DNA of 56,542 nt. It comes from an uncultured Candidatus Saccharibacteria bacterium. GTDB taxonomy: Bacteria; Patescibacteriota; WWE3; 9FT-COMBO-53-11. Position 1 is the stretch's first letter; each line of letters opens with the position of its first letter. The stretch lies in contig CAYPTJ010000003.1 in NCBI GenBank assembly GCA_964413845.1, forward strand, positions 1 to 56,542. The letters are read 5' to 3'. This document shows positions 24,253-27,470 of this stretch, piece after piece. Made by a program: the position numbers and the translations under genes. Under the pieces are notes generated by a model. That model saw only the letters and a program-made list of their open reading frames with translations. It did no database searches and had not been told where the DNA came from.

Positions 24253-24327
24253 TGGTCGGGGAGGGGGGAATTGAACCCCCTGCCTCTCGCACCCCATGCG
24301 AGCGGTCTACCGATGACCTACTCCCCG
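24253..24327 (-). tRNA. tRNA-Pro (GGG)
   Basis: Hand-folded. Acceptor CGGGGAG/CTCCCCG with C1:G72 and A73. D stem GGTC/GACC. Anticodon stem CTCGC/GCGAG with loop AUGGGGU. T arm GGGGG-TTCAATT-CCCCC. CCA is encoded. Confidence 0.9.
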
Positions 24328-24529
24328 CATCGCCAAGCACCTTTACCCGCCGAAGCTTTAGCGCAGGCGGGCCATGCGAGTGCGCGGACCTTGTCCGCCT
24401 CTGGCGGAAACTGCGCTATTCCCCGATGAGCAAAGCGAATCTCTTTTATTATACCCGCAAACTCTTGTATTTTCCACCGCTGGTGATAGACTTATAAGAC
24501 ACGCTCAAAACTACATATGGAGGATAGAG

Positions 24530-24802
24530 ATGCAAAAGTGTCCCGGTCTGGACCTGAGAAATGTAAGACCGGAGGATATTGAGGTAGAGTGTCCCTTCTG
24601 TGGAGAGATAGTTGAGATCTGGCCTCCAAGCCGGGGAATCAAATGCCCAAACTGTAAGAAATGGGTTGATAAAAGAGGGGGAATTCCAAGCTGTGCTGAC
24701 TGGTGTTCTGGTGGTGAAGAGATGGTAAGGGAGTGTCTCGGAGAAGAGAGATACAGAGAATGGAAAGAATCAAAACAAAGGAAGGAGGGAGGAGATGTCT
24801 AA
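24530..24802 (+). CDS. multi-Cys zinc-ribbon protein, unknown function
   Basis: ATG follows GGAGGA. Contains CPFCG...CPNC plus CADWC...C. The upstream part of the long ORF covers GC hairpins. Confidence 0.65.
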   Translation: MQKCPGLDLRNVRPEDIEVECPFCGEIVEIWPPSRGIKCPNCKKWVDKRGGIPSCADWCSGGEEMVRECLGEERYREWKESKQRKEGGDV

Positions 24803-25400
24803 GGTCTTTATCATCTGTCCAGTGAGGAATGCTGATCTGGCAATTCAGGAGGAGATTCAGCGTTATATAGAGCGATTAGAGGAAGCTGGGCATCATGTTC
24901 ACTGGCCCCTGCGGGACACCAACCAAAATGATCTCCACGGAATTCGCATCTGTATGGATAACTGCGATGCGATTATCGCCGCTGACGAGGTTCATATCTG
25001 GTACGACCCGACCAGTATGGGGTCGCACTTTGACATAGGAATGGTGAATGCTCTCCGTCTCTTAGGGTTTAAGAAAACGGTGCTTTGGGTTAATAACTTT
25101 CCACGGGCCTATCTGCCTTGGAATTATAAGCCCTTCCTTACCGTCAGAACTAGGACAGATGAGCTTCGTTACTGCTTTGAGCCGACTGGTCCTTGGTCCC
25201 TTTTTGAAGGGGGTATGCTCTTTGCTCTCCTTCGCTTGGGGTTCAAGAGAAAACTGGTTCTGCTGAACGACAGCGACGTTCAGCCGACTCCAGAGAAGAA
25301 GAGCTTCGCGAACGTCTTTCGCGCTTTGGCTGATGGTCGCGACATTGCGCGGGAAGATGCGGCGGAGATTCTTTCTACGTTAATTACTAGGGAGGAGTGA
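24795..25400 (+). CDS. nucleoside 2-deoxyribosyltransferase / DNPH1(Rcl)-like fold protein (tentative)
   Basis: VFIICPVRNA...AGHHVHWP...ADEVHIWYDPTSMGSHFDIG follows the YFCGSIRGG...ADVVVAEV..SLGVGYELG pattern, with Asp in place of the catalytic Glu. A partial internal duplication is present. Confidence 0.45.
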   Translation: MSKVFIICPVRNADLAIQEEIQRYIERLEEAGHHVHWPLRDTNQNDLHGIRICMDNCDAIIAADEVHIWYDPTSMGSHFDIGMVNALRLLGFKKTVLWVNNFPRAYLPWNYKPFLTVRTRTDELRYCFEPTGPWSLFEGGMLFALLRLGFKRKLVLLNDSDVQPTPEKKSFANVFRALADGRDIAREDAAEILSTLITREE

Positions 25401-25401
25401 G

Positions 25402-25632
25402 ATGAGAAAGTACAAGGTTGTGTTGATGAGGCAGGTGCTCTGGAGAGATTTACACCCAGAGATCCATCGTGTTGGGGCCTGCAACGCCGAAGAGGCGGTT
25501 GCGGAAGCAAAGGATCTGGTCCGCTGGGTGAACGAGGAGATGGGACGTGATCACATAGCGGGAAGGGTTGAGTTGCGCGAGGTCCACAACTCTCGTGGCA
25601 CACGTATCTGGTCACATTTGATTAATGAGTAG
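25402..25632 (+). CDS. hypothetical 76-aa protein
   Basis: Starts 2 nt after the previous stop and shares the terminator at 25642-25675. Confidence 0.55.
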   Translation: MRKYKVVLMRQVLWRDLHPEIHRVGACNAEEAVAEAKDLVRWVNEEMGRDHIAGRVELREVHNSRGTRIWSHLINE

Positions 25633-25641
25633 TTTTTGACT

Positions 25642-25675
25642 AAGGCTAGTTATGCTGACTAGCCTTTTTCTTTTG
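25642..25675 (+). terminator. rho-independent terminator
   Basis: AAGGCTAGT...ACTAGCCTT stem followed by TTTTCTTTT. Confidence 0.8.
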
Positions 25676-25715
25676 TTGTTGCATTTTGGGGTAAAGCACG
25701 ATAACATCGAAGACG

Positions 25716-26795
25716 ATGGCAAAGAAGTTGAGCGCAGCGAAATCCGCCTCTGGTGGAGAAAAAGCTAGTCCTTCGAAAGCCTCGGAATCAGGAAAAAAAC
25801 AGGCTCTAACCTCAGCGATTGAGCAGATTGAAAAGTCCTTTGGACGTGGTTCGATTATGAAGTTGGGGGAGCAGGCCGCCGCCAAGGCTGATGTGGAGGT
25901 CGTTCCCACCGGTTCTTTTGGGCTGGATCTTGCTTTAGGGGTGGGGGGAATCCCTAAGGGACGGGTGACCGAGATCTTTGGACCGGAAATGTCCGGAAAA
26001 ACAACCCTCGTTCTTCATATGATCGCCGAGGTGCAAAAACAAGGCGGAACCGCCGCTTTTATTGATGCGGAGCACGCCCTTGACCCCTCCTACGCCAAAC
26101 GTATCGGGGTTAATGTTGATGATCTTCTTCTCTCCCAGCCGGATACCGGCGAGCAATCGCTTGAAATTACGGAGACACTGGTTCGCTCGGGGGCGGTTGA
26201 CCTGATCGCAATTGACTCCGTTGCCGCACTTGCCCCGCGGGCGGAGATTGAAGGGGAGATGGGGCAACCTCATCTTGGACTTCAAGCACGGCTGATGTCC
26301 CAAGCGCTTCGAAAACTCGCCGGAGCAATTGCCAAATCCAACACAACCGTTGTTTTCACCAACCAGATCCGCCACAAGATTGGAGTCTTTTTCGGTAGTC
26401 CGGAAACAACCCCTGGTGGTTTGGCGCTTAAGTTTTACGCCTCGGTTCGGATTGATCTTCGAAGGATTGGAACGATCAAGCGAGGGGAGGAAGTTTTGGG
26501 ATCACGCGTTCGGGCGAAGGTGGTGAAAAACAAAGTCGCTCCACCTTTTCGCCAGGCGGAGTTTGACATTATGTATGATGAGGGGATCAGCAAAAGGGGG
26601 GAACTGTTGGAGCTTGGGGAACGTTATGGCGTTGTTGAAAAAAGCGGAGCCTGGCTTGAATTTGAGGGACGAAAGTTAGGCCAAGGTAAGGAAGGCTCAA
26701 AAGAGTTCCTAAAGAAAAATCCCAAGATCGCGGAGAAGATTGAGGAAGCGATCAAAAAAGCCGCCGAAAAAGCGGCTTCGACAAGCTCACTGTAA
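25716..26795 (+). CDS. recA: recombinase RecA (N-terminal Ser/Lys-rich extension)
   Basis: [10 protein letters not shown] Walker A, and the IDSVAAL and [11 protein letters not shown] motifs. Confidence 0.95.
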
Positions 26796-26830
26796 AAAAG
26801 CGAGAAGTCTTAAACTTCTCGCTAAGTTTT
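26793..26830. terminator. bidirectional terminator hairpin
   Basis: AAAAAAGCGAGAAGT...ACTTCTCGCT, lying between the convergent recA and 26822-27067 genes. Confidence 0.7.
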
Positions 26831-27067
26831 ACCTATTTGAACTCTCCTTTTGAAATCTCCTTCGGCAGGGAATGACAGGTCAAGGTCGGGTTCTAGTTCA
26901 CGTTTTGGTCTTTTGATCGCGTCCAAGATTTCCAGGGCATGGTCAAGATGAATTTCGATATCTTGCCACTTTACCTCTTCGTTGGTTCCTTCCGTCCCTT
27001 TGACTTTGGCGCAAACGCCATCGTAAGCTTCTTCAAGAATTGCCCTTATCTCATCAGTATCAAGCAT
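26822..27067 (-). CDS. hypothetical acidic 81-aa protein
   Basis: ATG follows AAGGAGGAAGC. Sits 10 nt downstream of the 27078-27470 ORF. Confidence 0.55.
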   Translation of the reverse strand: MLDTDEIRAILEEAYDGVCAKVKGTEGTNEEVKWQDIEIHLDHALEILDAIKRPKRELEPDLDLSFPAEGDFKRRVQIGKT

Positions 27068-27077
27068 TGCTTCCTCC

Positions 27078-27470
27078 TTACCACGAGACCGGGATGGTAA
27101 CCAACGCTACCTGATAACGACCCTGCTTTCTCCCCTTTTTGAAGACGCGATAAGTATATTCTTTCCTCCTGTCGCTAGGAGCCATTTCTTTAACGCGTTC
27201 GAGTTGGTGATCAAGTCCCCAAATCATCCGACGAACCACATCCACTGGGCTGTGGACAGTTTGATAGCGTATCTGCTGGAGGATATAAAGGCGCAAGCGC
27301 CAAACGGGACAGTATATTTCTTGATCAGGTGAAAGGTAATCTGGTAAGAGTCGTTTTCCTTGCGAGAGACCTTCCTCAATTAATTCTCGCTCCCAATCGG
27401 CGACATTGGCAGCCCGCTCTAGATACTTGCGATCCCTCTCCAGAAGCTCTTTCTCACTTAACTCAGCCAT
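27078..27470 (-). CDS. hypothetical 130-aa protein
   Basis: ATG follows ACGGAGGGATA. No motif recognised. Confidence 0.55.
   Translation of the reverse strand: MAELSEKELLERDRKYLERAANVADWERELIEEGLSQGKRLLPDYLSPDQEIYCPVWRLRLYILQQIRYQTVHSPVDVVRRMIWGLDHQLERVKEMAPSDRRKEYTYRVFKKGRKQGRYQVALVTIPVSW

Follow-up and report, generated by a model that had tools for sequence, protein, structure and literature searches.

Positions 1 to 56,542 of contig CAYPTJ010000003.1 (assembly GCA_964413845.1), from an uncultured Candidatus Saccharibacteria bacterium, form the 56,542-nt stretch that was analysed here and is referred to as the window; it carries three small open reading frames (ORFs) between a tRNA-Pro gene and recA. 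The second of these, ORF2, is a genuine gene, and its product falls into a separate and as yet uncharacterised clade within the nucleoside 2'-deoxyribosyltransferase (NDT)/DNPH1/MilB superfamily. On balance, we favour the reading that ORF2, as a member of this Asp-type clade, encodes a nucleotide N-glycosidase or transferase, and that the gene is accessory and horizontally mobile, lodged in a variable tRNA-Pro/recA slot together with two lineage-specific small ORFs. The protein would probably cleave, or exchange, the base of a non-canonical (deoxy)nucleoside monophosphate, and its role may lie in nucleotide salvage, in sanitation of the nucleotide pool, or in the struggle between phage and host over modified bases. 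In this lineage, the gene was partially duplicated in tandem, with the catalytic loop retained in copy 1 and the C-terminal motif in copy 2. The relevant features of ORF2 are as follows:

24795-25400, plus strand: ORF2 (P0002), 201 aa, NDT/DNPH1/MilB superfamily, Asp-type clade, with a 1.5-domain architecture
24984-25097, plus strand: repeat copy 1 of ORF2 (residues 64-101), spanning strand 3, the S74- and D80-bearing catalytic loop, a helix and the next strand
25158-25271, plus strand: repeat copy 2 of ORF2 (residues 122-159), with a degenerate loop and Glu at the D80 position, followed by the C-terminal KSF motif
25010-25195, plus strand: hypervariable linker segment within ORF2, from DNA comparison with locus L172

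Fold and superfamily assignment of ORF2

The best Pfam match of ORF2 is to PF05014 (E=1e-3; 19.6 bits, under the cut-off of 28.8); the same family is matched at E<=0.01 by 24 of 48 diverse relatives (best E=2e-10), and P0130 lies over the cut-off with 29.8 bits. The AlphaFold2 (AF2) model of ORF2 has a pLDDT of 86.8 and a pTM of 0.85, with confidence lowest at residues 100-120. Its best Foldseek matches are to NDT, MilB/BcmB and DNPH1 structures, with probabilities of ~1.0 and E values from 5e-3 to 1e-1, and comparison with VIA gives Z scores of 7.6-8.5 across ~100 of ~113 residues, the top matches again being NDT, MilB, BcmB and DNPH1. The highest of these is the Desulfotalea NDT (PDB code: 7o62; Z 8.5). 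The (hydroxymethyl)CMP N-glycosidases MilB and BcmB (PDB codes: 4jem, 4ohb and 4jen) are among the best, with a Z score of 8.4 and 22-23% identity to ORF2, and DNPH1 (Rcl; PDB codes: 8qhq and 4fyh), with which ORF2 has its alpha/beta fold in common, scores 7.3-8.1.

At the sequence level, the sole significant profile link of the family is to the NDT from Chroococcidiopsis (CtNDT; PDB code: 8pqp), the structures of which were matched among PDB sequences by the profile of the relatives at E=1.2e-3. PDB sequence searches with ORF2 itself and with the narrow profile A2 returned chance matches only; similarity to DNPH1 is undetectable by sequence, there being no PDB match to it at E<10 in the family profile search, and NCBIfam holds no model for ORF2 or ORF3. 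The assignment of ORF2 to the NDT/DNPH1/MilB superfamily is secure when the profile and model-based scores are combined, although none of them is overwhelming singly. It agrees with the original prediction, made from the letters of the sequence, that ORF2 adopts an NDT/DNPH1 fold, which is supported by PF05014 in the relatives, the AF2 model, Foldseek, VIA and the CtNDT profile alignment alike.

Active-site pattern of the Asp-type clade

Residue conservation was surveyed over 314 family domains, in which D80, S74, R11, F5 and position 56 are given in single-domain numbering. The alignment of the family profile with CtNDT sets D80 on E88, S74 on D82, N56 on D62 and F5 on Y7; where CtNDT has Y7, D62, D82 and E88, the family has F, N, S and D, and so differs at all four of these catalytic or sugar-binding positions. 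Position 80 is Asp in 306 of 312 domains and never Glu, such that the canonical catalytic Glu (E98 in LlNDT, E88 in CtNDT and E104 in DNPH1) is not conserved either in ORF2 or in the clade, and the Asp at this position that had been read from ORF2 alone is borne out by its alignment on CtNDT E88. The canonical general-acid Asp (D62 in CtNDT, D80 in DNPH1) is likewise not conserved: among 310 domains, position 56 is Asn in 235 and His in 63. Also near-invariant are S74 (Ser in 305 of 310 domains) and R11 (Arg in 285 of 304), whereas position 5 is divided between Phe (225 domains) and Tyr (64). The clade has, in addition, invariant motifs of its own: the loop HxPxRDTxQxD, ADEVH in strand 3, and KSF at the C-terminus; copy 1 of ORF2 has the conserved ADEVHIW and SxGSxFDxG family motifs.

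In human DNPH1, E104 is the nucleophile, D80 the acid and S98 the phosphate-holding residue, and R30 follows strand 1; the MilB counterparts are F17, R23, S97 and E103 (PMC10603095). The clade reproduces the spacing of this arrangement: the intervals F5-R11, N56-D80 and S74-D80 (6, 24 and 6 residues) equal those of Y24-R30, D80-E104 and S98-E104 in human DNPH1, and the first and last of them also equal F17-R23 and S97-E103 of MilB. Both DNPH1 and the clade have, then, an Arg six residues past the strand-1 aromatic residue, 24 residues from the general-acid position to the nucleophile, and, six residues ahead of the acidic nucleophile, a Ser that in DNPH1 binds the 5'-phosphate (PMC10603095); the equivalence of R11 to R30 of DNPH1 and R23 of MilB is based on spacing and structural ranges, rather than on residue-level superposition. 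The CPVR-type motif past strand 1, to which the original prediction had pointed, and the Ser ahead of the acid fit the DNPH1/MilB spacing (PMC10603095). The differences from DNPH1 concern the nucleophile, which is Asp rather than Glu, the general-acid Asp, which is replaced by Asn or His, and the Tyr, which is mostly Phe; the clade further possesses an invariant RDTxQxD loop in place of the His56/shielding-loop region, plus the C-terminal KSF. With MilB, the clade shares a strand-1 Phe in place of Tyr, as well as the Arg and the Ser (PMC10603095, PMC4081090). It departs from MilB in having Asp for Glu103 and in lacking any antibiotic-biosynthesis context, and both MilB and BcmB are without the clade-specific motifs and the 1.5-domain architecture. 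To judge from these alignments, the monophosphate-binding features of DNPH1 and MilB are retained in the clade while both catalytic carboxylates are changed.

A further point of comparison is DmtZ, a recently characterised phage NDT-family dAMP hydrolase/deoxyribose-5-phosphate transferase (PMC12884076). Likened by description, it too is a phage-borne enzyme of the NDT superfamily that acts on a deoxynucleoside monophosphate (dNMP) and is encoded beside nucleotide-metabolism genes (PMC12884076), a role of the sort that we propose for the clade; it differs from the clade in keeping the canonical catalytic triad with Glu103.

Internal duplication and divergence of ORF2

The original prediction had remarked on a partial internal duplication in ORF2, which is real and longer than was noted: residues 64-101 and 122-159 share 39% identity (E=1e-8; BLASTP, single comparison), and in the AF2 model residues 123-156 form an additional strand-helix-strand beyond a linker of low confidence. 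The resulting 1.5-domain layout, which combines a complete domain with a repeat of its C-terminal half, was found in 25 of the 184 sequences examined, and a full tandem duplication in 12. Because its bearers are scattered over the tree (e.g. P0035, P0037, P0045, P0052, P0066, P0087 and P0094) and the form in the window is nested among single-domain clade members, the layout seems to have arisen several times. Throughout the family, second copies have lost the catalytic-loop residues and keep KSF in 30 of 36 cases.

Comparison of the window with L172 reveals a segment of ~185 nt (25010-25195) that is largely unalignable, flanked by sequence with scattered mismatches only (by eye, ~95-97% identical); such mosaicism is suggestive of gene conversion or recombination involving the two repeat copies. 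In the L001 homologue, P0004 (L001:4001-4609), which is 90% identical to ORF2, near-invariant residues of the ADEVH motif are lost (E65 to R and H67 to D), and its non-synonymous changes cluster at window positions 24878-25078.

Distribution of the family

An exhaustive profile search yielded at least 1,055 representatives (clusters at 50% identity) at E<=1e-3, with 843 of them at E<=1e-10. Loci were retrieved with the narrow alignment A2, the broad alignment A3 being too diverse for pattern-based retrieval; species-representative genomes gave 69, mostly in bacteria of the candidate phyla radiation (CPR) and DPANN archaea; Bacteroidota, Syntrophorhabdus and Firmicutes account for a few. In the phylum of the window, the family is rare: of 401 genomes sampled, 6 have it, as do 2 of 61 relatives. 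IMG/VR contributed 67 viral loci, on contigs of up to 405 kb; a tblastn search of the cultured phages in INPHARED with P0011 found nothing. Viral and cellular sequences are interleaved in a FastTree phylogeny (support values not inspected). The three-ORF cassette had been described as an orphan, and this holds for ORF1 and ORF3, the homologues of which occur only in near-identical genomes; ORF2, by contrast, belongs to a large family.

Genomic context outside the window lineage

Neighbours in viruses were counted over loci L104-L170, several contigs of which are near-duplicates. A radical SAM gene (phrog_9298) lies within two genes of the family gene in 15 of these loci and is adjacent in all but one, and a divergent, long thymidylate-synthase (TS)-like gene lies within five genes in 10 and directly upstream in six; nine loci have a NUDIX-domain protein and five a kinase-like gene with a sub-threshold AAA_33 match. 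Examples from these viral loci are L159:4312-5352 and L112:2635-3915. Together, this neighbourhood looks like an uncharacterised nucleotide-modification module. MilB acts after MilA, a TS-like hydroxymethylase, and the MilA/MilB order has a parallel in the TS-like genes that accompany the family gene on viral contigs.

Among cellular loci, an adjoining gene has a weak radical SAM match in five; in Parcubacteria, NDK and a split ComEC are found in nine and NT5C in three. A dUTPase gene and an Exo_endo_phos (PF03372) gene are nearby in L010, and UvrD adjoins the family gene downstream in L011. Two fusions were also identified. In P0084, the family domain is joined to an ASCH domain (PF04266, E=3.5e-7), which aligns to the small upstream proteins of the window lineage with an hhalign probability of 92.5%, and in P0151 it is joined to DUF7768/DUF4406, another NDT-like domain. 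Proteins of the ASCH type hydrolyse N4-acylcytosine nucleosides (PMC6972931). Overall, the neighbourhoods point to non-canonical nucleotide chemistry, the substrate of which is not fixed by them.

The tRNA-Pro/recA slot

The remaining features of the locus in the window are the following:

24253-24327, minus strand: tRNA-Pro(ggg), found by ARAGORN and matched by Rfam tRNA with 60 bits; it is conserved and bounds the variable slot on the left
24530-24802, plus strand: ORF1 (P0001), Cys-rich, zinc-ribbon-like, 90 aa, with an ATG after a GGAGG box
25402-25632, plus strand: ORF3 (P0003), a putative 76-aa ORFan from the ORF list
25642-25675, plus strand: intrinsic terminator (11-bp stem, then a T-run) at the end of the three-ORF unit and before recA
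25716-26795, plus strand: recA, from the ORF list; conserved right border of the slot

These coordinates confirm the description given in the original prediction of three tightly packed plus-strand ORFs with one terminator between tRNA-Pro and recA. ORF1 and ORF2 overlap by 8 nt and the gap between ORF2 and ORF3 is 1 nt; the GGAGG box lies 7 nt ahead of the ORF1 ATG, and a longer ORF1 reading, of 142 aa from 24374, is likewise open. The hairpin (25642-25666) with its T-rich tail is the sole strong terminator-like site, and it is retained in L172 with compensatory changes; in L006, a hairpin plus a -10 box is located between the family gene and recA. On the evidence of these elements, the ORF2 gene forms its own transcription unit, separate from recA; co-transcription with recA was considered and is unlikely. 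Because the terminator, or the hairpin and -10 box, sets the family gene apart from recA, its adjacency to the latter is probably positional.

In the closest homologues, the family gene is directly upstream of recA-rny in every look-up and downstream of tRNA-Pro(ggg) where the DNA was seen, and tRNA-Pro(ggg) also stands upstream of recA in L001, L006, L010, G003-G008 and G019. The order tRNA-Pro/NDT-like gene/recA is conserved in this small WWE3-like clade. What lies within the slot varies between genomes, as listed here; the last three entries are genomes of the same taxonomic family that have no family gene, and were taken from the regions upstream of recA in L084-L089 and L093 (G003-G009 and G019).

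Window and L171 (99.95% identical): zinc ribbon, family gene (1.5-domain), ORF3
L001 and L172: 4HBT thioesterase, family gene (1.5-domain), ORF3
L002 and L012 (G002): ASCH-like gene, family gene; the L002 contig begins inside the ASCH-like gene (tRNA outside the contig, recA follows), and the L012 contig stops inside the family gene, so that recA is outside it
L006 and L010: family gene alone
G004: empty, ~160 bp
G003, G005, G007 and G008: ASCH-like gene, UDG-superfamily-like gene of ~139 aa (UDG, uracil-DNA glycosylase)
G019: MazE-like antitoxin, Fic/Doc toxin

The interval 24328-25715 of the window is, then, a small hot-spot at which accessory genes are swapped in this CPR family, and the suggestion in the original prediction of an accessory slot beside a tRNA gene is supported by these exchanges. 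The UDG-like protein of ~139 aa (L087:2778-3194, minus strand; alignment A5) has unusual motifs, QCPWR near its N-terminus and HPA near its C-terminus, and is far shorter than known UDGs. Its assignment is based on a match to Pfam UDG (E=7e-4) and on an AF2 model (pLDDT 77) for which Foldseek returns family-4 UDG, UdgX, TDG and SMUG1 at E ~2e-3; the A4 and A5 profiles gave no match to PDB sequences.

Codon usage sets all three ORFs of the cassette apart: their scores (-0.10 for ORF1, 0.11 for ORF2 and 0.08 for ORF3, against a housekeeping mean of 0.32 with a standard deviation of 0.12) are at or under the 5th percentile of housekeeping scores, and for each ORF the annotated frame scores best among the three forward frames. 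Such atypical usage fits foreign or young genes; the GC content of the cassette has no anomaly.

ORF1 and ORF3 as lineage-specific neighbours

ORF1 has the eight Cys residues that had been counted previously, including two CxxC pairs, which are 14 residues apart, and four further Cys. Its matches to Pfam zinc ribbons are all sub-threshold (best E=9e-4), it matches phrog_8736 at E=1e-4, and among 5.8 billion proteins it has no homologue but itself. In the ORF1 region, homology between the window and L001 starts only at 24778; for this reason, we take the last eight codons of ORF1 to read through a conserved ORF2 leader. ORF1 is probably expressed by translational coupling to ORF2. Prediction of a complex between ORF2 and ORF1 reached a best score of 0.09 against a mark of 0.32, which counts neither way.

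Apart from the window, ORF3 is present only in L001, L171 and L172, the DNA of which is closely similar; it is absent from L002, L006, L010 and the P0011 contigs, and has no Pfam, PHROG or PADLOC match. Among its four variants, non-synonymous codon changes outnumber synonymous ones in five of six pairwise comparisons and there is no third-position bias, albeit with small numbers. Two further ideas concerning ORF3 were considered: a structured RNA or recA leader finds no support (no Rfam match; fold z-score -1.5), and its apparently unusual conservation is rejected, L172 being simply a close relative apart from one hypervariable segment. ORF1 and ORF3 are recent lineage-specific additions, and neither is a conserved partner of ORF2.

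Putative function of ORF2 and alternative explanations

Several observations weigh against the N-glycosidase/transferase reading that we favour. The clade has no biochemically characterised member, and its activity is one that we infer; the window protein is under the Pfam cut-off and its structural scores are middling (Foldseek E ~5e-3, Z ~8), with TIR domains scoring only slightly below the NDT-type matches in structure searches. The neighbour counts include near-duplicate viral contigs and related genomes and are thus non-independent, the adjacency to recA may be purely positional, and the loss of E65 and H67 in P0004 hints at relaxed constraint in this sub-lineage, perhaps after duplication. 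Moreover, with Glu changed to Asp and Asp to Asn or His, the clade could bind its ligand rather than cleave it, or could use another mechanism. Indeed, the human DNPH1 D80N variant was crystallised with its substrate 5hmdUMP still bound (title of PDB entry 8rps), a situation that Asn at the general-acid position of the clade would mimic, and the family gene adjoins recA or uvrD in several lineages; one might, therefore, envisage a non-catalytic nucleotide- or nucleic-acid-binding protein, such as a sensor or regulator of recombination or repair. We regard this as improbable, given that each 120-aa domain has ~20 invariant polar residues, which is more enzyme-like, that a terminator and a promoter-like box stand between it and recA in the case of the family gene here, and that the phage contexts are metabolic. 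A classical NDT, which would exchange the bases of deoxynucleosides and so serve salvage in an organism unable to make nucleotides de novo, seems to us improbable to the same degree: among Pfam families PF05014 gives the best match, NDTs figure among the leading structural matches, CPR bacteria lack nucleotide biosynthesis (PMC10633639), and NDK, NT5C and ComEC adjoin the family gene in Parcubacteria, but the clade has neither the catalytic Glu nor the general-acid Asp, nor the Asp that binds the 5'-OH (D82 in CtNDT), in place of which it has the Ser that is typical of the monophosphate-specific DNPH1 and MilB (PMC10603095), and presence in only ~1.5% of sampled genomes of the phylum does not befit a core salvage enzyme.

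The alternative to which we give most weight, while still judging it unlikely, is that ORF2, either by itself or together with ORF1 and ORF3, serves anti-phage defence by destroying phage-specific modified nucleotides or excising modified bases, and is interchangeable with the UDG-like gene of the sister genomes. The slot is a variable islet that may be empty or hold either the ASCH-like and UDG-like genes or MazE/Doc; the family is rare and patchy in distribution; all three ORFs have atypical codon usage, and ORF2 has its hypervariable segment. UDG-family and helix-hairpin-helix (HhH) glycosylases are proven defence effectors (PMC11078745; bioRxiv 10.1101/2025.10.29.685425), and the pairing of a glycosylase with a base-trimming helper is known from Brig3/BapA (bioRxiv 10.64898/2026.02.25.707755). 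Against this, the family is no less common in phage contigs than in cells, and in the former it lies beside biosynthetic-looking genes; no other defence genes were identified among the ORFs flanking the slot in the window, and the retained phosphate-binding residues are better suited to free nucleotides than to DNA. No PADLOC-DB model was matched at E<=1 by any of the three proteins, which also counts against a defence role, although the library dates from 2023 and so leaves room for one. We know of no NDT-fold defence glycosidase, which tells in the same direction. The original prediction treated the three genes as one dedicated system, of zinc ribbon, NDT-like protein and 76-aa protein, and named a failure of the genes to co-occur elsewhere as grounds for refutation; tight coupling, a single Shine-Dalgarno-led start and a single terminator speak for such a system, as do Cys-rich N-terminal extensions in ~6-8 of 173 family members and at least two CxxC motifs in 7 of 88 small viral neighbours. 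The triad was found, however, only in the near-identical L171, and co-occurrence does not reach past strains of ~95-100% DNA identity: ORF1 is exchanged for a 4HBT thioesterase in L001 and L172, for an ASCH-like gene in L002 and L012 and for nothing in L006 and L010, and most relatives are without ORF3. Homologues of ORF1 and ORF3 are confined to closely related strains, ORF3 bears no sign of purifying selection, and the fused Cys-rich modules are not homologous to ORF1. By this lack of co-occurrence a three-gene system is largely refuted and, in our estimation, very unlikely; for annotation, this amounts to the negative result that the three-ORF cassette is not a system.

Were the favoured N-glycosidase/transferase reading of ORF2 to be true, the clade, which has over 1,000 sequence clusters, would carry N-glycosidases of the DNPH1/MilB type into phages, CPR bacteria and DPANN archaea, its catalytic dyad being Asp/Asn where theirs is Glu/Asp, and would offer a handle on the processing of non-canonical nucleotides by genome-reduced symbionts and their phages; the links to TS-like, radical SAM and ASCH genes would then point to unexplored pathways of base modification or base removal. 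More speculatively, and with low probability as a whole, the Asp-type clade might be a new enzyme class in an arms race over modified nucleotides, traded between phages and CPR/DPANN organisms. In cells, it would provide a pool-level defence that destroys phage-specific modified (d)NMPs, such as those of 5-hydroxymethyl pyrimidine or N4-acyl cytosine, and would be interchangeable in situ with the miniature UDG-like glycosylase; often it would be partnered with, or fused to, an ASCH 'base-trimming' enzyme, in parallel to Brig3/BapA, and the 1.5-domain duplication would build a pseudo-dimeric active site.

recA and the interval downstream

At the right border of the slot, the RecA Pfam domains are at the matching position in the relatives, and the differences in recA by codon position (8, 9 and 71 at positions 1, 2 and 3, respectively) have a third-position bias that speaks for strong purifying selection. 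The interval downstream of recA differs between genomes as well. At 26822-27470 (minus strand), the window and L171 have two small minus-strand ORFs of 81 and 130 aa, and L001 has a response regulator and a histidine kinase in the corresponding interval (L001:6001-7850), so that this interval is variable too.

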